A DNA stretch of 64,000 nt from an uncultured Planctomycetota bacterium (GTDB lineage: Bacteria; Planctomycetota; PLA2; JAEUHO01), in the NCBI GenBank assembly GCA_963752285.1, contig CAVVXN010000005.1, positions 1,024,001-1,088,000 of the forward strand, read 5' to 3'. Each line of letters opens with the position of its first letter. Position 1 is the stretch's first letter. The notes beneath the pieces were generated by a model. The model saw only the letters and a list, made by a program, of their open reading frames with translations. It did not search any database and was not told the origin of the DNA. The translations under genes and the position numbers were made by a program. Positions 43,900 to 60,259 of the stretch are shown here, piece after piece.

Positions 43900-44180
43900 C
43901 GGAGGTCCTCCGGGCTCACGGCACGGCGGCCGGCGACGCCGCGGGCGCCTTGGGCCTGGCTGCGCCGAGCTCGCGACGCCGATGGGGAGTGGCCGCGCGC
44001 GGCGCGGGATTACCCGCGCTTCCGGGGCGCCCGCGAGGAGCCGCCGGGGCGGGGCCGCGGTCCCGGAGCGGCGTGGCGACGGAGGAGCGCACTGGCCAGG
44101 GCGCGCCCCGGGGAGGTGGAATCCCCATCCGTCCGCCGAGGCCCTGGGCCGCGCCGCCCTCGGTCGGATCGGAGGCCCGG

Positions 44181-45860
44181 ATGGCAGAAGTCACGTCCCC
44201 GGTCGTGCAAAGCCGGCTCTCGAGGCTCGAGCAGGCCTTTCCCTCGCTCACGCCCGCGCAGCTCGCGCGTGTCCGGGCGCACGGGGTCGAGCAGACCGTC
44301 CGCGCCGGCGAGGTGTTGGTCGAGGCGGGCGACCGCGACGTGCCGCTCTTCGTCGTCACGTCGGGACGGATCGAGGCCGTCCGACCGTGCGAGAGCGAGC
44401 GGACCCCGGTGGCCCTCGTCGGCCCGGGACAGTTCACCGGGGAAGTCGGGATCCTCTCGAGCCGTCCCGCGATGTTTCGTCTCCGGGCGAAGGAGGCGGG
44501 CCGGGTGATCCGCGTGGAGCACGGCCCGCTCCTCCAGCTCGTGCAGAACGGCGACGAGGTGGGCGAGGTCTTGATGCGCGCCTTCATCCTCCGCCGGGTG
44601 GAGCTCGTGGCGCAGGGGCTCGGTGACGTCGTGGTGGTCGGCTCGGTCTACTGCGCCGCGACGCTCCGGGTGCGGGAGTTCCTGACGCGGAACGCGCACC
44701 CGTACGCCTATGTGGACCTCGAGCGGGAGGACGACGTCCAGAGCCTGCTCGACCGGTTCCACGTGGGACTCGACGACGTGCCGGTCGTCATCTGTCGCGG
44801 TCACCTGGTCCTTCGGAATCCCACCAACCAGCAGATCGCCGACTGTCTCGGCCTGAACGCGGAGATCGACACGGAGCGGGCCCGCGACCTCGTGGTGGTC
44901 GGGGCCGGTCCGGCCGGCCTGGCCGCCGCGGTGTACGCCGCGTCGGAGGGCCTCGACGTACTCGTGCTCGAGTCGGAGTCGCCCGGCGGGCAGGCCGGGT
45001 CGAGCTCGAAGATCGAGAACTACCTCGGCTTTCCGACCGGAGTCTCCGGACAGGAGCTCGCCAGTCGCGCCTACTCCCAGGCCCAGAAGTTCGGAGCCGA
45101 GCTGATGGTCGCGAGCGGGGCCCACCACCTCGACTGCGACGCGCGGCCCTTCGCGCTCGTCCTCGAAGACGGTCGGCGCATCCCGGCGCGGTGCGTGATC
45201 ATCGCGTCCGGGGCTCGGTACCGAAGGCTGCCCGTGCCCAACCTCTCGCGCTTCGAGGGCGCGGGCGTCTACTACGCGGCGAGCTTCATGGAGGCGCAGC
45301 TCTGCACGGGCGAGGAGGTGGTGGTGGTCGGCGCCGGAAACTCCGCCGGTCAGGCGGCGGTGTTCCTCGCCCAGACGACCGCGCGCGTCCACCTCCTCGT
45401 TCGCGGGAGCGGCCTCGCGGCGTCGATGTCGCGTTACCTCGTCCAGCGCATCGAAGACAACCCGGCGATCGTCGTCCGGACGCGGACCCAGGTCGTGGCG
45501 CTCGACGGGAATCACCACCTGGAGCGCGTTCGCTGGCGCGACGACGCGAGCGGGGAGACCGAGGAGCACCCGGTCCGCCACGTGTTCCTGATGACCGGCG
45601 CGGTGCCCAGCACGGACTGGCTCGACGCGTGCGTCGCGCTCGACGGGAGAGGGTTCATCAAGACCGGGCCGGCGCTGACGGGCGAAGACCTCGCCGCGGC
45701 GGGCTGGCCCCTTCCTCGACGTCCGCATCTCCTCGAGACCAGCCGGCCCGGCGTGTTCGCCGTGGGCGACGTCCGAGGCGGCAACGTGAAGCGCGTGGCG
45801 GCGGCGGTCGGAGAGGGATCGATCGCCATCTCGTTCGTGCACGAGGTGCTCCGGGGGTAG
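44181..45860 (+). CDS. cNMP-binding domain fused to thioredoxin-reductase-like FAD oxidoreductase
   Basis: N-terminal cNMP (GQFTGE), GAGPAGL, IENYLGFP, GAGNSAGQAA, FAVGDVR; GGAGG RBS. Confidence 0.92.
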   Translation: MAEVTSPVVQSRLSRLEQAFPSLTPAQLARVRAHGVEQTVRAGEVLVEAGDRDVPLFVVTSGRIEAVRPCESERTPVALVGPGQFTGEVGILSSRPAMFRLRAKEAGRVIRVEHGPLLQLVQNGDEVGEVLMRAFILRRVELVAQGLGDVVVVGSVYCAATLRVREFLTRNAHPYAYVDLEREDDVQSLLDRFHVGLDDVPVVICRGHLVLRNPTNQQIADCLGLNAEIDTERARDLVVVGAGPAGLAAAVYAASEGLDVLVLESESPGGQAGSSSKIENYLGFPTGVSGQELASRAYSQAQKFGAELMVASGAHHLDCDARPFALVLEDGRRIPARCVIIASGARYRRLPVPNLSRFEGAGVYYAASFMEAQLCTGEEVVVVGAGNSAGQAAVFLAQTTARVHLLVRGSGLAASMSRYLVQRIEDNPAIVVRTRTQVVALDGNHHLERVRWRDDASGETEEHPVRHVFLMTGAVPSTDWLDACVALDGRGFIKTGPALTGEDLAAAGWPLPRRPHLLETSRPGVFAVGDVRGGNVKRVAAAVGEGSIAISFVHEVLRG

Positions 45861-52292: not shown

Positions 52293-52612
52293 CGGTCGGT
52301 GACTCCCGGCGCGCATGACGAGGGCTCCTCTCCCCCCCCCGAGGCCGGGGGCGACCCAGGCCGGGGCGAGGGAGGCAGGTTCCCTCCGGGGACCCCCAGC
52401 GAGGCGCGCGCCCGAGCGCATCCCAGGTCGTGACCGTCACGTCCGGGTTCAGCGCGCGTACCCCGCGGACGGACACAGCCGCGTTCTCTCCGTCGCCGCC
52501 GGCTCGCGCACGGCCTCGGCGTCGCGACGGTCGATCCTCGACGCCAACGGCGTCGGCGCAAAGCGGCCCGAGGCGCGACCGGCACATCGCGGCGGACGGT
52601 AGGATCGTCCGG

Positions 52613-53950
52613 GTGGGCGACCGCTCCTCCCCCCGGATCACGCCGGCCGCACGGCGGATCGACGCCAGCAGGGTCCCGTTCCTGGTCGCCCGACTCTTCT
52701 CCGCCACCCGCAAGGTTCCCGCGGTCGCGGTCACGACGTCGGCCACCACCGGCGAGCCGCATCTCGATCCCGACGCGCTCGCCGCCGACGTGGGCGAGGC
52801 GGCGGAGGTCTACCTGATCCCGACCGGCGAGGCGACGTGGGCGCTCTCCGCCGCGCTCCCGGAGAAGCTCGACGTCTACGGCGGCGCGGTGCGCATCTGG
52901 TGGCCGGGCCTCACGCGCGAGACGAGTCCCTACGACCACCCCCTCCTCTTCGCGCGTTCGCGGGAGGACGGTGAGCAGGGGCGTCGGCGCGTCCTGGCGG
53001 CGATCCGCCCGACGCCGCCCCCCGCACCCGCCCCCTGGAAGCGGGTCGCCGAGGCGTACCAGGTGGGCGACGTCGTGTGGGGTGTCGTGGAGAACCTGAA
53101 GCCTTTCGGGGCGTTCGTCGAGCTCCTGCCGGGCGTCGTGGGTCTGGTCCACAAGAGCGAGCTCGACTGGACCTTCGTGGACGACCCGGCCGACTTCGTG
53201 AGCGCGGGCGAGCAGGTGCGGGTCCAGATCCTGCGCCTGGACCCCGTGGAGAAGCAGGCGGACCTCTCGGTGAAGCGCGCCTGGAACCGCGAGCCGCGCG
53301 CTCCCCTCCCGGCCGAGCCCGGCGGACGCCCGCTGCTCTCCGACGCGCCCCCGCCGCGCCCCGTCCCCGTGCCCAGCGTCGCGACGGCGGCCCTCGACGA
53401 ACTTCAGGCCGAGCTCGAGTCGGTTCGGGAGGACCGTTTGAACCTCCTTCGGCGCATGCGCGAGCTCCAGAAGGAGCTTCGGAGCGCCGGGGACCGCGTC
53501 GCGTACCTGGAGCGGACGGCAAACGTCGATGCGACGGCCTCCGAGACTGCGTTCCTCGTGGGCGTACGCATCGCCTATGCGCGGCAGTTCGGCGAGGACG
53601 AGCGCCGGCGGTACCCCCTCGCGCGCATGCGCGTGGGAGCCGCGTTCCTCGACCGCCTCCGGAACCTCGCGGGCATCGGCACCGAGAAGGTGCTCGAGGT
53701 GTGCGCCCAGGTGGCCGCCGGCCGCGCCCACGAGATTCCGGCGCGCGAGGTCCACCGGCTCCGGCAGGGCGAGGGCGGTACGGGCTACGCGAACCGCAAG
53801 CGCGACGGCGCCGCCGCGTGGCGATGCTCGCTCCAGGACGCGACCCCGGGGGCGCGACGGCTCCACTGGTGGAACGTCCCCGGACCCGACGGCGCGACGA
53901 TCGAGTTCGCGAGCGTGGGAGTCCACGACGACTACGGGATCCCCGATTGA
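52613..53950 (+). CDS. Multi-domain protein: alpha/beta domain, S1 RNA-binding domain, coiled coil, RelE-like C-terminal domain
   Basis: S1 motif YQVGDVVWGVVENLKPFGAFVEL.PGV.GLVHKSEL; heptad region; C-terminal AWRCSL...ARRLHWW...IEFASVGVHD. Start 52613 tentative (ORF open from 52430). Confidence 0.8.
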   Translation: MGDRSSPRITPAARRIDASRVPFLVARLFSATRKVPAVAVTTSATTGEPHLDPDALAADVGEAAEVYLIPTGEATWALSAALPEKLDVYGGAVRIWWPGLTRETSPYDHPLLFARSREDGEQGRRRVLAAIRPTPPPAPAPWKRVAEAYQVGDVVWGVVENLKPFGAFVELLPGVVGLVHKSELDWTFVDDPADFVSAGEQVRVQILRLDPVEKQADLSVKRAWNREPRAPLPAEPGGRPLLSDAPPPRPVPVPSVATAALDELQAELESVREDRLNLLRRMRELQKELRSAGDRVAYLERTANVDATASETAFLVGVRIAYARQFGEDERRRYPLARMRVGAAFLDRLRNLAGIGTEKVLEVCAQVAAGRAHEIPAREVHRLRQGEGGTGYANRKRDGAAAWRCSLQDATPGARRLHWWNVPGPDGATIEFASVGVHDDYGIPD

Positions 53951-54215: not shown

Positions 54216-54289
54216 AGTCTCGGCTGACGTGGCCGTGGGCGATTCGACGGCAGGCGCAAGCGTCACGGACGGGGCGGTTGCCGCACGGC

Positions 54290-54479
54290 TCAGGACGCCG
54301 GCGGCGTGGAGGCGCTTGGCGTAGCGGTCGAAGACCTTCTCCGCGACGTCCGAGAGCCACGCGGGGGCCTCGGGCAGCGCGACCTCGGGCTGCGGCTCGG
54401 CGGGGTTGCGCTTCGCGCGCCACGATCCGCGCAGGCGCAGAACCTGCGTCGGCGTCGGGCGGGGGCCGGGCTTGGCCAT
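54290..54479 (-). pseudogene. Phage terminase small subunit (P27-like), N-terminal part only
   Basis: MAKPGPRPTPTQVLRLRGS...PEAPAWLS..AEKVFDR....L.AAGVL; similarity is lost afterwards; GAGAGG RBS. Confidence 0.75.
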
Positions 54480-54865
54480 GGCTCGTTCCTCTCGCCGCCC
54501 ACGCGGCGGGTGCTGGAGGAGCCCGGCGGGGGTGACGCCCCCTTTCTACCCGTGCCCAGGGACGTCCGGACGGCCGGAAGGCGCCCGGCGAACCCGTGGC
54601 GGGGCCGGCCTCCGGGGACGACGTCGGGGGCCGCGGTCGCCAGGTCGTGGACGTCCGCTGCGGCGGCCTGGCCCCGCTCCGCGAGGGGGTCGGCGGCGGC
54701 GCGGAGGAGATCGAGGACGCCCACGGGGACCACGGCGGCGACGGCCTCGCCCCGGCGCGTGACGACGACGTAGGTGCCGTCATCCCGCACGCGGCCGAGG
54801 ACCGACGCCAGGTCGGCTCTGAGGCGATGGACGGGGAGTCTGAGAGGGGGCAGAGCGGGGGTCAT
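54290..54865 (-). CDS. Phd/YefM-type antitoxin-like protein (3' end uncertain)
   Basis: 'LRADLASVLGRV...YVVVTRRGEAVAAVVP' matches the Phd DNA-binding domain pattern. Confidence 0.65.
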   Translation of the reverse strand: MTPALPPLRLPVHRLRADLASVLGRVRDDGTYVVVTRRGEAVAAVVPVGVLDLLRAAADPLAERGQAAAADVHDLATAAPDVVPGGRPRHGFAGRLPAVRTSLGTGRKGASPPPGSSSTRRVGGERNEPWPSPAPARRRRRFCACADRGARSATPPSRSPRSRCPRPPRGSRTSRRRSSTATPSASTPPAS

Positions 54866-54871
54866 GAGAGC

Positions 54872-54885
54872 GAGTTGTACAACTC
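54872..54885. promoter_or_regulatory. Perfect 14-bp palindrome GAGTTGTACAACTC, putative Phd/YefM operator
   Basis: 6 nt upstream of the Phd-like ATG; TGTACA core. Confidence 0.65.
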
Positions 54886-55340
54886 AGAGCCGACAGAATG
54901 GGCCTCCGGGGCCATTTCGCGTTTGCCCCCCGATCCCGTGAAAAAAGAGGCACGCCCACGCGCCCGCTCGGGGGCGCCTCGAGCTCCTAGAGATGGAGGG
55001 CCCCCCCTTCCCTGCCTTCAGCCGAGCGCGCTCGGCCGCTCTCTTCCGGCCGTGGCAGACCGTGCACGTGGGGGCGAGGTTCGACCGCACGAACGCGAGC
55101 TCGCGGGCAACCGCGAGGGGGACGACCTGGTCCACCTGCGTGGCGGGCTCGGTCAGCCCGAGGGCGGCGCACTCGCGGCAGACGGGCTCGTCACGCAGGC
55201 ACCCGGGCCCGGACGGCCTGCCAGCGTGCGGAGCCGCGGATGCGGGCCACGGCCGGGTCGCGGCGGGTGCGGTTGTACACCGCGTCCGCGTGGCGGCGGC
55301 TGCGTAGTATCCCAGCGAGCGTGCGCGGCTTCGTCGGCAT
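54884..55340 (-). pseudogene. Phage packaging-type HNH endonuclease, frameshifted near 55199
   Basis: MPTKPR...SARWQAVRARV | LRDEPVCREC...ATQVDQVVP...SNLAPTCTVCHGRK. Confidence 0.75.
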
Positions 55341-55444
55341 GACGCCTCGGGCTCGCGCCCGCTGGGTTCAGCGCTCCCCAAGGCTACCACGCCCCCTGCG
55401 TCGTCGCTACGCTGACCAGCGGTAGCGACAGGGGGGCGAGAGCA

Positions 55445-57157
55445 ATGCATGCGTGCCGGAGGCTGCTTAGCCTAGTTGCGCTCGGATTGATGTTCGGCTG
55501 CGGCGGCGGGGGGACGAAGCCACCGGTGGATCCCGGCCCCATGCCCGGGCCCTCCATTTCACTGCTGCAGACAAGCGCCGCGCCATTTGACCTGGTGACG
55601 GTGGGTTCCGCCGGGGCGTCGTCCGGGCTAGATGGGACGATTCGACTCTGGGACTCCAGCGGCTACGACACTACGTTGCCGCTCCTTGAGACGGAGCCCG
55701 TGCAGTTTGTCTGCCCCGTGTACGTTAGCCAGCCTTCCGGAGGCATGCCCTCGGGCGACGTGAGCGCCGAAGTCACGATTGGCGGGCAAGACTACAGTGT
55801 AGTGGGGACACTCCACATCGCGGCCCTGCCGACGTCCTCGGCACCCGCGGGGAGTATCGTCAAGGCAGCACTGGAGTCGATGCTGCAGCAGGGGGTGGCT
55901 ACTGGGCGCGAGGATCTGGCGGCACTGCTTGCCCACCTTCCGGGCGCGTCAGTACTCAATGCACCGGACATTCTCGATGCCTACGGGCAGCAGGCCGACT
56001 TCATCCTGTCCAGCTACGCAGCAGTGTCTGCCTTGACCGATGGGGCTGAGATCAGCCAACACCTGGGAAGATATTCTCGAGGCACGACGATGGTCGATGT
56101 GACACTGGACGCTACGGCCCTTCACTACCTGGACGCACTTCTGCTTGCATTTGTGCGGTCCCAGCAGCCCGCGCTGGGCGAACTTCGAAGCGCCTCGCTT
56201 CCTGACGGCGCAGCCCACGATGAAGTGGACGACGTCGCAACGGGCCTAGACTACGCACATAGAATTGAGGATGGGCTTCGCAGCATCGAGACTGCACCCC
56301 TAAAGTGGCTGCTGCGCCGGTCTACGCGGGGTCTGGAGAACTGTTTCTATGCGATACGCAGCAGAGATCCGGCTCACGCCCTGTATCTCCCGGTGAACGA
56401 GGTGCTCGCTCTCGGATGGCTCCAACTATTCAATGTCGCCTCCGAGTATTGGACTGTAGGAGACCGGATCAAGACCTGGGCGACAAACGATCCCGATACC
56501 CTGGCCGAGGTCCAAGGCAACATCGACCGGATTCGCAAACTCGCGCAAGACAACAAGGCAGCGCAAGCGGGAGTTGACGAGCTTAGGGAGGCGTTCGACC
56601 CCGACCTGCCTCCACCCGGTCCCCCTGAGCCCATTCCTTCGAGCTCTGCGTTCCTGCCGTCCTATCTCGACGGGTTGCCCGCACCGGACGGGAGTCCCGC
56701 GATCGATGAGTGGCAGGATGCCGCAGCCGGCGGCCAGATCCAGCCGTATCCTTGGGCCAAGGGCTCGGGTACGTACACTTGGACGGGGTTTCGCAGCCAG
56801 GGGACTGTCGTCGATCCTGGTACTGGCTGCGCCTACCAGTCGGGGTTTTCCGACGAGGTAGTTGAAGTGGCATTCGGGCCGGACGGTAGCGCCACGTGGA
56901 GCTATACTGGCACTTGGGAGAACCGCCCCCTTGGGAGTTGTTCCGATCCCGACTTTGTGGTCCCCCCCCCATCTGGCGTCCCTACTATTCGAACGGGCGA
57001 CAGCGTTTCATTCTACGAGAACGCGGGCGTCAGCTGGGCCTGGTACGCCAATATGCAGTCGATCACGATCTACCCCCCCGGCCCTTCGGGGTCGTCCACG
57101 CAATGGCGCCTCTCGTATCACTATGGCGCCACCGGCGGGAACGAATTATGGAAGTGA
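55445..57157 (+). CDS. Hypothetical lipoprotein with lower GC/atypical codon usage
   Basis: 570 aa ORF, LMFGC lipobox, many A/T-ending codons. Confidence 0.75.
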   Translation: MHACRRLLSLVALGLMFGCGGGGTKPPVDPGPMPGPSISLLQTSAAPFDLVTVGSAGASSGLDGTIRLWDSSGYDTTLPLLETEPVQFVCPVYVSQPSGGMPSGDVSAEVTIGGQDYSVVGTLHIAALPTSSAPAGSIVKAALESMLQQGVATGREDLAALLAHLPGASVLNAPDILDAYGQQADFILSSYAAVSALTDGAEISQHLGRYSRGTTMVDVTLDATALHYLDALLLAFVRSQQPALGELRSASLPDGAAHDEVDDVATGLDYAHRIEDGLRSIETAPLKWLLRRSTRGLENCFYAIRSRDPAHALYLPVNEVLALGWLQLFNVASEYWTVGDRIKTWATNDPDTLAEVQGNIDRIRKLAQDNKAAQAGVDELREAFDPDLPPPGPPEPIPSSSAFLPSYLDGLPAPDGSPAIDEWQDAAAGGQIQPYPWAKGSGTYTWTGFRSQGTVVDPGTGCAYQSGFSDEVVEVAFGPDGSATWSYTGTWENRPLGSCSDPDFVVPPPSGVPTIRTGDSVSFYENAGVSWAWYANMQSITIYPPGPSGSSTQWRLSYHYGATGGNELWK

Positions 57158-57669: not shown

Positions 57670-58270
57670 GTATCCGTCCGGTCAACCCAGGTAGCAGAAC
57701 GTTGGCCCGCGCCGGCCGTCAGCCCGTATCGGGTGCAGCCCGATCGCGGGCCTCCCGCCATCCCCGCGGGGTAAGCTCGTGCATGCGGTCCGCGGGTGCT
57801 GGGCGACCCGGCTGAGGACGTCCGTCAGCCACGCCTTCGGGTCGATCTTCTGCAGTCGGCAGGTGCCGAGCGACCCGTAGAACGTGGCCGCCCACGCACC
57901 GCCACTCTCGCTCCCGCAGAACGTCCAGTTCGACCGGCCCACGGCCACGGCTCGCAATGCGCGCTCCGCCCGGTTGTTGTCGAGCTCGATCGCGCCGTCG
58001 TCGAGGAAGCGCGCGAGCTCGGTCCATTGGTCAGCGCGTAGCCGGTGGCCTTCCCGACCGGGCTCTTGGGAAGGACCTCGGTCTCCATCGCTCCAGGTGC
58101 GCGTGCAGGGTCTTCATGATCGCGACGCTGCGATCCTGGCGGAGCACGTAGCGGAGCGCCACGAGCTCCTCCCGGCTCTCCGTCGCGCTCCAGGCGTCCT
58201 CCTCTACGTCGTAGAGCTGGCGCACGAGCGCGAGCACCAGGAGGCAACGCGCGGGGTCCAGGCCCCGGGC
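57670..58270 (-). mobile_element. IS66-family remnant (3' part of TnpC transposase, frameshifted, with right end)
   Basis: LYDVE, LPKSPVGKATGYA, IELDNNRAERALRAVAVGRSNWTFCGS, IDPKAWLTDVL; end ...GGACGGATAC at 57670. Confidence 0.85.
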
Positions 58271-59030
58271 TGTCAAGGGACACCCAGTCTTCCGAACTAG
58301 GGAGACGTCCAGTCTTACGAGGTCCTCCTTCTGGGTTTGGGTCTCCGTCTCTTGATCTGGGGTGGGTTGAGGGAGGGGCTTGGCCCCTCCCTCATCCGCT
58401 CCGGTTCTTTTCTGCCTCTTCGCCCCCCCGAGGGGGGGCGCGAGGCGGCACTCGGTTTGCGGCGTCCCTCACTGCAGCTGCCGCTCGAGATCGCGCAGCC
58501 GGTACGAGCTGCCCCGCACGCTGAACACGTGGGCGCGGTGCAGCAACCGATCCAGCATGGCCGTCGCCATCACCTCGTCGCCGGCCAGGATCTCGGGCCA
58601 GTCCTTCACCGCCTTGTTCGTGGTCAGGATCATGCTCCCACGGCCGTAGCGGTAGCCGATCAGGCGGAAGAACAGGCTCGCCTCCTGACGCGTCATCGGC
58701 TGGAAGCCGATCTCGTCGATGATCAGCAGGGCCACGGAGTTGTACTTCTTCCCCCGCAGCCGCGTCGGCGGAACGTCCGCGTCGCGCCGGAGCATGTGGA
58801 GCAGGTCGTCGAGCCGGTGAAAGGCCACCGAGAACCCGCACTCGACGGCCTTCACGCCCAGGGCCACCGCCAGGTGCGTCTTGCCGATCCCGGGCGGGCC
58901 CTGGATCAGGACGCTCTCGTGCTCGCGGATGTAGCCGCACGTCGCCAGCGTCTCCAGGCGCCGCTGGTCGAAGCCCGGCTGGAAGCCCCAGTCGAAGCTC
59001 GACAGCGTCTGGCCCGGCGGGAGCCCCGAC
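58271..59030 (-). mobile_element. istB: IS21-family remnant: right end plus 5'-truncated istB (58469-59030)
   Basis: FDWGFQP, GPPGIGKTHLA, LLIIDEIGF, ILTTNK, LDRLLH, GSSYRL; terminus TGTCAA at 58271 with repeated CCAGTCTT sites. Confidence 0.88.
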
Positions 59031-59084
59031 TGGGGTGGCCCCGGTTTGGTGGAGGGTCGGGCGCTGGGGTAGGAGATATCCCCG

Positions 59085-59399
59085 ATGCCCAAGACCCGTC
59101 CCCCCTACCCCCCTGAGTTTCGCCGCCGGCTCCTGGACCTCGTCCGGGCCGGTCGCACTCCCGAGAGCCTCTCGAAGGAGTTCAAGGTCTCCGCGCAGTC
59201 GATCCGGACCTGGGCCCGCCAAGCGGACCTGGACGCCGGCCGCCGAACGGACGGCCTCACGACCGAGGAGCGCCAGGAGCTGAACCGTCTCCGCCGACAG
59301 GTCCGCGTGCTCGAGGAGGAGCGCGAGATTCTGAAAAAAGCGGCGGCCTGGTTCGCCAAGGAGACCACGTCCGGCCCCAGGAAGGGTTCCGGTTCGTGA
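59085..59399 (+). CDS. IS3 OrfA (HTH)
   Basis: YPPEFR, SIRTW, LEEEREILKKAAAWF. Confidence 0.92.
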   Translation: MPKTRPPYPPEFRRRLLDLVRAGRTPESLSKEFKVSAQSIRTWARQADLDAGRRTDGLTTEERQELNRLRRQVRVLEEEREILKKAAAWFAKETTSGPRKGSGS

Positions 59400-60259
59400 G
59401 GGCGCACCAGGCCAACCACGCGGTCGAGACCCAATGCCGGGTGCTCGGTGTCTCCGTGAGCGGGTACTACGCCTCCCGGACGAGGCCGCCGTCGGCCCGT
59501 TCGATCGAGGACGCACGGCTCCTCGGGAAGATCCGGGCATTCCATGCCGCCTCCCGCGGCACGTACGGAGCTCGGCGCATCCACGCCGACCTGGAGGCCG
59601 AAGGCGTCTTCGTGGGCCGCAAGCGAGTGGCGCGCCTGATGCGCCTGGCGGGCTTGGAAGGCGTCAGCCCGCGGAAGTGGACGACCACGACGTCCCGCAG
59701 CGACGAGCACGCCGCGGCGCCGGACCTCGTGAACCGGGACTTTTCGGCGAACGCGCCGAACAAGCTCTGGGTCGCCGACATCACGTACGTGCCGACTTGG
59801 GAGGGATTCCTCTACCTGGCGGTCGTGCTCGACGTCTGGAGCCGAAAGATCGTCGGCTGGGCGATGAGCACGAGCCTGGCGACCGAGCTCGTGCTCACGG
59901 CGCTGGAGATGGCCGTGCGCCAGAGACAACCCTCGGGCGTCGTGCATCACTCCGACAAGGGCTGCCAGCACACATCGATCGCGTTCGGGCACCGCTGCAT
60001 CGAGGCGGGCGTGAAGCCGTCCACGGGATCGGTGGGCGACGCATACGACAACGCGATGGCCGAGAGTTTCTTCTCGACGCTCGAGTGCGAGGTGATCGCT
60101 CGGCAGTCGCTCAAGACCAAGGACCACGCCCGGAGCGAGGTGTTCTCGTTCATCGAGGGCTGGTACAACCCCCGCCGACGGCACTCCGCCATCGGCTACA
60201 AGTCACCCAACCAGTTCGAGGAGGCCGCCGTCCAGGCGGCCATGGCCCCCAGCGCCTGA
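59396..60259 (+). CDS. IS3 OrfB (DDE transposase/integrase core)
   Basis: WVADITY, HHSDKG, DNAMAESFF, WYNPRRRHS. Confidence 0.93.
   Translation: MRAHQANHAVETQCRVLGVSVSGYYASRTRPPSARSIEDARLLGKIRAFHAASRGTYGARRIHADLEAEGVFVGRKRVARLMRLAGLEGVSPRKWTTTTSRSDEHAAAPDLVNRDFSANAPNKLWVADITYVPTWEGFLYLAVVLDVWSRKIVGWAMSTSLATELVLTALEMAVRQRQPSGVVHHSDKGCQHTSIAFGHRCIEAGVKPSTGSVGDAYDNAMAESFFSTLECEVIARQSLKTKDHARSEVFSFIEGWYNPRRRHSAIGYKSPNQFEEAAVQAAMAPSA

Follow-up and report, generated by a model that had tools for sequence, protein, structure and literature searches.

Reading frame and domains of the encoded protein

The 64,000-nucleotide stretch of Planctomycetota DNA analyzed here (the window) contains on the forward strand, at positions 52430-53950, an uninterrupted open reading frame (ORF) of 506 codons. 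According to models and database searches, its product consists of a thioredoxin-like domain, an S1 RNA-binding domain, a coiled coil and a RelE-like domain, in this order (Table 1). These four parts had been named in an earlier note made from the sequence alone, and all of them were found in the ORF product. Since the protein is distantly related to a recently tested one-gene anti-phage system, it is most likely a self-contained RNA-cutting defence protein.

The G+C content at third codon positions (GC3) of the ORF is 0.91, which is of the coding type and similar to that of the upstream chromosomal genes. A chance ORF is unlikely, since 275 database proteins match the product at E ≤ 1e-3, the best at 1e-186. 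The database version of the protein, P0001, is 445 amino acids long and starts with the GTG at position 52613; the two next best matches show 67% and 66% identity (E 1e-186 and 1e-180). These two are named in their sources only "S1 RNA-binding domain-containing protein" or "hypothetical". In homologues the first conserved helix is preceded by about 20 residues, which agrees with the GTG at 52613, and this position was therefore taken as the start. The gene proposed in the earlier note is thus real, with its start corrected. The first 61 codons of the ORF, which lie outside the region covered by homologues (query coverage ≤88%), probably belong to the untranslated stretch between this gene and the divergent one. 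Within window positions 52601-52615, a TAGGAT hexamer ends 6 nt ahead of the GTG and could indicate a leaderless transcript. Scans for promoter and terminator consensus sequences returned 0 and 0 matches, which is uninformative at a G+C content of 73%.

The N-terminal alpha/beta domain around DVYGGAVRIWWPG...HPL, which the earlier note had listed as uncharacterized, was recovered in the AlphaFold2 (AF2) model. Residues 14-131 of P0001 form the order beta-alpha-beta-alpha-beta-alpha-beta-beta-alpha with a predicted local distance difference test (pLDDT) value of 94.5. In a Foldseek search against the PDB, all matches listed for this module are thioredoxin folds (best E 1.3e-3, probability 1.00), and they include 3vfi, a structure also used by the authors of the anti-phage candidate HEC-07. 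Cysteine is absent from the module, which is therefore taken to be redox-dead. Its residues G90, G91 and R94 are invariant and W76, W96, P98 and H109 near-invariant; T71, G72, T75 and W97 also belong to one of these two classes.

HEC-07 (Hma-embedded candidate 07, PADLOC models PDLC04158-04161) is the closest known relative of this module that was tested by experiment. In the preprint it is described as a single protein that starts with an AdoMetDC-like domain, continues with a thioredoxin-like domain devoid of CxxC and ends in a RelE-like domain resembling HP0892, in which a functionally important histidine is located at position 543 of about 553 (bioRxiv 10.1101/2024.01.29.577857). In the same preprint, seven of nine candidates including HEC-07 are reported to lower plaquing in E. 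coli, the exceptions being HEC-01 and HEC-09 (bioRxiv 10.1101/2024.01.29.577857). Two E-values were obtained with HEC-07 models for the window protein, 2.8e-17 (PDLC04161) and 1.3e-6, and the match is confined to profile positions 163-283 of 553, which is the thioredoxin-like domain. HEC-07 models were matched by 30 of the 31 family members tested, always between the thioredoxin-like domain and the helical region. In two of seven S1-less short forms tested (P0124 and P0174) the match runs through the helical region to profile positions 374-398 of 553. By sequence profile, the first module is thus homologous to the thioredoxin-like domain of HEC-07, and the idea of a defence function gains an independent link through a tested one-gene anti-phage system.

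Both HEC-07 and the window protein are encoded by a single gene without an antitoxin, and both combine a Cys-less thioredoxin-like domain, a helical region and, in the window protein on the basis of fold, a C-terminal RelE-like domain with a conserved histidine near the end. The RelE-like domains of both also resemble HP0892 of Helicobacter pylori (for HEC-07, bioRxiv 10.1101/2024.01.29.577857). However, the window protein is not a strict HEC-07 member, because the AdoMetDC-like first domain is missing (only about 20 residues precede the thioredoxin-like domain), an S1 domain and a long dimerizing coiled coil are inserted, and the C-terminal domain is not recognized by HEC-07 models. Unlike HEC-07, it is also not Hma-embedded, and it comes from high-G+C genomes of the Planctomycetota/Myxococcota type.

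The S1-type OB fold was confirmed by Pfam PF00575 (E 1.7e-16, 60.8 bits, full-length match 3-74 of 74, ORF residues 211-282) and by NCBIfam S1-type models with E-values down to 5.8e-26. This fold is common to ribosomal protein S1 and CvfD/GSP13, but the window protein contains one S1 unit only, and its best NCBIfam rpsA match reaches 90.9 bits against a cut-off of 624. The other NCBIfam matches are likewise confined to this unit and score well under the cut-offs of their families. The identity as ribosomal protein S1, which is suggested by the source label, was ruled out by these scores and the single unit.

For the coiled coil, a dimer of two full-length copies was modelled with a 46-row alignment in three runs and with three controls. 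The homodimer reached an ipSAE of 0.51 (runs 0.53, 0.47 and 0.51), compared to 0.00 for the best control; the runs share at least 47% of their contacts, and the pLDDT of the partner is at least 78. In the calibration of the tool, 20 of 30 solved homo-pairs reach the mark, as against 1 of 23 single chains; with a custom alignment these counts hold only roughly. The contacts at P0001 residues 257-303 show the a/d spacing of the heptads seen in the earlier note, and the pairing of residues with their own counterparts (275:275, 289:289) points to a coiled coil that is parallel and in register. The C-terminal domain contributes its two extra helices (residues 315-340, with the pair 320:320) to the same interface. 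The model passing its controls supports homodimerization, and with it the oligomerizing role proposed before, in the sense of self-association only. Coiled coils are common in solved structures, and this likeness may account for part of the pass. For a contact between the thioredoxin-like and the nuclease domain the model provides no usable evidence; a single residue, W76, is present in the contact list of one copy.

The last 142 residues were modelled with a pLDDT of 93.4 and a predicted TM-score (pTM) of 0.89. The model comprises two helices, followed by strand-helix-helix and four strands, with the strands AWRCSL, RRLHWW and IEFASVGV and the subsequent HDD at the places where the earlier note had seen them. 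In the Foldseek search against the PDB, ranks 1-9 are type II toxins of the RelE/YafQ/HP0892 group, with probabilities of 0.75-0.99, target-normalized TM-scores of 0.50-0.70 and E-values of 0.03-0.14. These are YafQ (9lew_B; E 0.029, probability 0.99, TM 0.68), HP0892 of H. pylori matched twice (4lsy_A, 2otr), RelE2 (two chains) and RelE1 of Mycobacterium tuberculosis, RelE of Pyrococcus horikoshii (TM 0.70), RelE of Thermus thermophilus and a toxin of a Salmonella toxin-antitoxin system. YoeB and the ribosome-bound CARF-RelE protein Cami1 (8phj_X) are found lower in the list, and the non-RelE rows that follow ranks 1-9 have TM-scores of about 0.25 and root-mean-square deviations above 10 Å. 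As predicted in the earlier note, the last module thus models as a RelE/BECR-type fold.

Within this domain the residues H78, R92, D95, R101, R113, H115, E128, H135 and D136 (domain numbering) are invariant or at least 90% conserved, and W100 is also kept across three phyla. Mean column identity of the domain across phyla is 57%. The conserved polar residues are located on or next to predicted strands and just after the last predicted strand. The invariant H135 lies seven residues from the C-terminus. YafQ and HP0892 carry a functionally important histidine at the corresponding position near their C-termini, and the RelE-group toxins RelE, YafQ, HP0892 and YoeB have the alpha/beta fold as well as basic and histidine residues on the sheet and at the C-terminus in common with the domain. 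In contrast, these toxins are about 90 amino acids long and come with a cognate antitoxin gene, whereas the fold in the window protein ends a 445-residue chain, has two extra N-terminal helices, has no antitoxin and shows no sequence similarity to their Pfam families.

Family architectures and homologue loci

With a profile of the thioredoxin-like domain alone, 2968 cluster representatives (clustering at 50% identity) were matched at E ≤ 1e-3, of which 1224 remain at E ≤ 1e-10. Architectures were counted with profiles of both end domains among 131 newly seen top matches. The C-terminal domain is present in 83 of them, behind one thioredoxin-like domain in 46 and behind two in 37, the latter being about 700 amino acids long and without any Pfam domain. 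A thioredoxin-like domain only was found in 41, mostly short fragments, two copies with another C-terminus in four, and three copies in three, two of which end in a CHAT protease. The proteins P0144 (1489 amino acids) and P0171 (1483 amino acids) consist of three tandem HEC-07-type thioredoxin-like copies, about 800 unassigned residues and a CHAT (caspase-like) protease domain (Pfam E 6e-16 and 5e-19). In these proteins the effector appears to be swapped on the same presumed sensor. Such a modular use of the thioredoxin-like domain, with the C-terminal domain or with CHAT, is typical of conflict systems.

Forms of about 340 amino acids lack any S1 domain, and longer forms carry up to several additional OB-like units. 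The core of the family therefore consists of the thioredoxin-like domain, a helix and the C-terminal domain, with S1 as an accessory of one branch. The part that the earlier note gave to S1 is weakened in this respect, since the domain is an optional insert.

In a search for free-standing C-terminal domains 70 short proteins were found. Most of them are fragments, their source being either a contig of 1-2 kb or a split gene call. P0320 and P0317 (221-222 amino acids), P0306 and P0296 look like genuine proteins of a coiled coil and the C-terminal domain without a thioredoxin-like part, and may represent a split or minimal form. The source label of P0320 is Pseudoclavibacter sp. 8L, a cultured actinobacterium (contig of 1.98 Mb).

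A scan of one genome per species (185,579 species genomes) with two peptide patterns, which is not exhaustive, returned 46 loci from Planctomycetota, Myxococcota and Actinomycetota (Gaiellales, Thermoleophilia). None of five tested neighbours of the gene in the window recurs at these loci by tblastn. Neighbouring genes were taken from crude composition-based calls, and seven loci in which the focal gene itself was not called were dropped (L010, L016, L025, L028, L031, L045 and L046). The 240 neighbours fall into 184 clusters, none of which spans phyla. Recurrence was seen only within Actinomycetota (at most eight loci) or among L001-L003, which are near-identical loci, L001 and L003 being from one bin. 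No partner gene is conserved. Since no neighbour is shared across phyla, the loci fit the absence of a cognate antitoxin that had been proposed before.

The 105 proteins encoded within two genes of the focal gene at 34 loci were scanned; L002/L003 and a number of redundant neighbours from Actinomycetota were not included. Strong PADLOC matches were found in 6 of the 24 complete non-actinobacterial (Planctomycetota/Myxococcota) loci, namely DrmD (2e-195) with HNH and PDC-S59 in L005, AbiEii in L006 (7e-125) and L013 (6e-81), a PDC-S41 fragment in L012 (2e-27), a DpdE/ZorD-type gene in L023 (3e-125) and a DpdF/GajB-type gene in L030 (9e-112). Phage or transposon genes were present in three more loci (L001, L008 and L018). 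Locus L044 contains only a C-terminal fragment of the focal gene, adjoining a bSEFIR gene and an integrase. Furthermore, the focal gene is apparently frameshifted or split in L046 (7262-7646), where the C-terminal domain leaves the frame after about residue 70, in L005 (6688-8426) and in L040 (6680-8336); these may be pseudogenes or assembly errors.

In a tree of the two end domains with 33 rows, the Actinomycetota are placed on one side (support 78/84), and the Myxococcota are scattered among the Planctomycetota. The frameshifted L046 was left out, as were L002, L003, L026, L034-L038, L040, L041 and L043-L045 (duplicates or missing domain crop). The distribution of the Myxococcota needs three changes, but well-supported branches force only one, so that transfer between phyla is unproven.

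Surroundings in the window

The genes upstream of the focal gene are ordinary and code for a cNMP-binding thioredoxin-reductase-like protein, an APH kinase, MarR, a ClC channel and an epimerase, followed by the unassigned 585-residue protein of Table 1. The first of these (43950-45857, forward strand) is a thioredoxin-reductase-type flavoprotein (Pfam Pyr_redox_2, E 4e-36) with an N-terminal cyclic-nucleotide-binding domain (cNMP_binding, E 1e-12). L032 contains a homologue with 40% identity at a distance of about 3 kb from its focal gene, which is probably a coincidence.

Table 1. Features of the focal gene and of its surroundings in the window.
Feature	Position	Strand	Evidence
In-frame upstream extension, 61 codons, probably untranslated	52430..52612	+	divergent intergenic region; no homologue coverage
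Probable true coding sequence, 445 aa and stop	52613..53950	+	P0001 start, homologue N-termini, GC3 0.91
Cys-free thioredoxin-fold domain, HEC-07-type; proposed sensor/regulatory module	52637..53005	+	PADLOC, AF2, Foldseek
S1 (OB-fold) RNA-binding domain	53060..53275	+	Pfam PF00575, NCBIfam S1-type models
Pro-rich, poorly conserved linker	53276..53380	+	gappy, variable alignment columns
Heptad coiled coil, modelled as parallel in-register homodimer	53381..53521	+	dimer model, a/d-spaced contacts
C-terminal domain: two extra helices (modelled dimer interface), then RelE/YafQ-like alpha/beta core	53522..53947	+	AF2, Foldseek, conservation
Divergent helical protein, 585 aa	50664-52421	-	no family match
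Terminase small subunit, truncated, first 66 codons	54282-54479	-	phrog_83, E 5e-9, profile 39-111 of 246
Phd/YefM-type antitoxin gene	54590-54865	-	Pfam E 1.4e-7, NCBIfam E 2.7e-7
Phage-type HNH endonuclease	54884-55450	-	PHROG HNH families, best E 7e-13
570-aa ORF, lipoprotein-like N-terminus	55445-57154	+	GC3 0.71 vs ~0.9; no Pfam, NCBIfam, PADLOC or PHROGs match
IS66 C-terminal fragment	57685-57957	-	
IstB-like ATPase (IS21) without its transposase	58472-59092	-	
IS3 OrfA/OrfB pair, intact-looking	59085-60256	+	

The large divergent ORF had been suggested as a possible partner in the earlier note. This was ruled out, as tblastn found it in none of the 46 related loci. No family of Pfam, NCBIfam, PADLOC or PHROGs is matched by the protein, and its look-alikes in the Atlas (score 0.94-0.96) are unnamed proteins of about 575 amino acids from Myxococcota, Actinomycetota and Bacillota. 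It belongs to an uncharacterized widespread family that is unrelated to the focal gene.

Just downstream of the focal gene, the region 54282-55450 on the reverse strand is a phage remnant. It is followed by the 570-residue ORF, which is probably foreign cargo, and by pieces of IS66, IS21 and IS3 that lie together at 57.7-60.3 kb. Beyond 55 kb the G+C content falls from 0.74 to 0.62-0.70. The focal gene is thus located at the boundary of a variable region, on its core side by composition, and the setting near phage and IS remnants described in the earlier note was found as stated.

With regard to the antitoxin, the statement that none is encoded in the operon of the focal gene held, but the phage remnant on the opposite strand contains a Phd/YefM-type antitoxin gene. 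YefM-type antitoxins are partners of the RelE-fold YoeB toxins. The focal gene could accordingly be a conventional type II toxin held in trans by this protein, whose domain is encoded 640 bp downstream and for which no toxin gene of its own is detectable in the remnant. However, the gene is located on the opposite strand between the HNH endonuclease and the truncated terminase, and a Phd homologue is absent from all 46 related loci; as cognate antitoxin the protein was ruled out on these grounds, and a toxin controlled in this way is very improbable. As a speculation, an orphan YefM-like antitoxin beside an effector of RelE/YoeB fold could be a countermeasure of the phage.

Proposed function, alternatives and meaning

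Taken together, the models suggest that the gene product is an endoribonuclease of RelE/YafQ fold, homodimeric, self-contained and without antitoxin, which would be a distant architectural relative of HEC-07. We give this reading a probability of roughly 0.55. It agrees on the whole with the interpretation in the earlier note, which is supported by the RelE/BECR-type model, the homodimer model and the lack of a conserved neighbour. The Cys-free thioredoxin-like module would keep the nuclease silent and sense a trigger, which may be infection or another translational insult. In the S1-bearing branch, the S1 domain would hold RNA or a ribosome-bound message. Once released, the paired RelE-like heads would cut RNA, most likely mRNA on the ribosome as is the case with RelE, YafQ and Cami1, presumably using the C-terminal histidine (H135 of the domain) together with the conserved arginine, histidine and glutamate residues of the sheet. 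This would halt translation in the infected cell.

Several results weigh against this reading. The first group concerns the nuclease assignment. Because no PDB match of the C-terminal domain in Foldseek reaches E ≤ 1e-3, the assignment to RelE follows from the consistency of the list and from no single score. None of 39 members of the C-terminal domain matches a Pfam RelE/ParE family at E ≤ 10, and no match to PDB sequences was obtained by phmmer with a single sequence or with a profile. PADLOC models gave no sequence match for the domain either, and a search of the Atlas yielded nothing but unnamed clusters of about 150 amino acids. Among the 31 family members tested with HEC-07 models, the C-terminal domain was never matched, so that its homology to the nuclease domain of HEC-07 would be one of fold and position only. 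The conserved residues are likewise compared to known catalytic sites by their position on predicted strands only.

These results leave room for a module of RelE/ParE fold that is catalytically dead or not a nuclease at all and that binds, for instance, ribosomes, RNA or gyrase, in which case the protein would be an RNA-binding regulator. Non-nuclease gyrase poisons are also built on the RelE/ParE fold (Gerdes 2025, PMC11980606). However, near-invariant histidine, arginine, glutamate and aspartate residues are placed on or just after the sheet, with a histidine about seven residues from the C-terminus; a comparable histidine is described for HEC-07, and an RNA-binding S1 domain is part of the same chain. 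A module without nuclease activity is therefore quite unlikely, and an endoribonuclease remains the preferred reading.

The second group concerns the defence function. The focal gene has a host-like composition on the core side of the G+C break. Defence or mobile neighbours are present in 9 of the 24 non-actinobacterial loci, a raw count without matched background that is suggestive only, and 15 of the 24 have ordinary neighbours only. In the Actinomycetota no defence neighbours were found at the eight loci examined, all of which have ordinary contexts, and eight loci (two of them from clustering only) share the upstream gene in fixed order. There, a fusion of an APH kinase, an M23 peptidase and a class III aminotransferase (955-1384 amino acids; L032-L041) is encoded directly upstream on the same strand, with DUF349 and OsmC genes downstream. 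The setting in defence islands that the earlier note had suggested checking among homologues is therefore mixed, with defence or mobile genes at part of the non-actinobacterial loci and a conserved ordinary context in Actinomycetota. Furthermore, both end domains are unusually conserved across three phyla, which is atypical of fast-evolving immune sensors.

All this is also what would be seen with a housekeeping nuclease of RNA metabolism or ribosome surveillance, that is, a dimeric S1-bearing enzyme of RelE fold which acts on translation complexes that have stalled or been damaged, or takes part in RNA turnover, and whose thioredoxin-like module binds a conserved host component. The Actinomycetota on one side of the tree, as under vertical descent, point in the same direction at weak support. 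The strongly conserved surface of the thioredoxin-like module argues for a conserved ligand or host component and not for a variable phage protein, and this keeps the housekeeping explanation alive. On the other hand, the distribution is sparse (46 loci in the genomes scanned, with two peptide patterns only), the thioredoxin-like module has only one relative that was tested by experiment, and this is a defence gene, a CHAT protease is joined to the same module in some proteins, and 9 of the 24 non-actinobacterial loci have the defence or mobile neighbours counted above. A housekeeping role is less likely, and we retain the defence ribonuclease as the favoured reading.

Among known systems, Cami1 (PDB 8phj) follows the same logic, with a sensor and a RelE-fold effector in one antitoxin-less protein. 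It is a weak structural match (Foldseek rank 44, probability 0.47), and its sensor is a CARF domain that binds cyclic oligoadenylate in CRISPR type III loci, whereas the module of the window protein is thioredoxin-like. CapRel(SJ46) is a fused toxin-antitoxin whose toxin domain attacks translation and is kept inactive by a regulatory domain as long as no signal of a phage is received. The concept is similar, but fold and chemistry of its toxin are unrelated, and the window protein is only presumed to be autoinhibited.

With HEC-07, a defence protein of RelE fold that is encoded by one gene, lacks an antitoxin and has a thioredoxin-like domain is already in print. The combination of S1 and coiled coil without an AdoMetDC-like domain and the sequence-orphan predicted nuclease domain appear to be new. 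Neither this architecture nor this nuclease domain was described in the literature searched, preprint supplements being outside its scope. In a term search of the review, S1 domain, thioredoxin, coiled and HEC-07 were not found (Gerdes 2025, PMC11980606).

A more far-reaching idea is only tentative. The Cys-free thioredoxin fold might be the general trigger sensor of a large unrecognized class of one-protein immune effectors (the 2968 clusters), in which a dimerizing coiled coil would mostly link it to a RelE-fold nuclease of orphan sequence, with CHAT in its place in some cases. HEC-07 would then be one small branch, and in the S1 form two RelE-like heads would be brought to RNA or to neighbouring ribosomes, which would amount to an antitoxin-free gating of a ribosome-dependent RNase.

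The RelE-type fold, which usually occurs as a protein of about 90 amino acids under the control of an antitoxin, is here built into a long, antitoxin-free chain that is dimeric in the model, and its family has the sensor-like domain in common with a phage-defence gene that is active by experiment. In databases the family goes only by the name "S1 RNA-binding domain-containing protein", because the predicted nuclease domain escapes the Pfam, PADLOC and PDB sequence models. If both the nuclease and its gating are true, defence annotation would gain a large family in the poorly studied Planctomycetota, Myxococcota and Actinomycetota. The protein would then also be a tractable case of how a RelE fold is silenced without an antitoxin, and of what a redox-dead thioredoxin fold senses.

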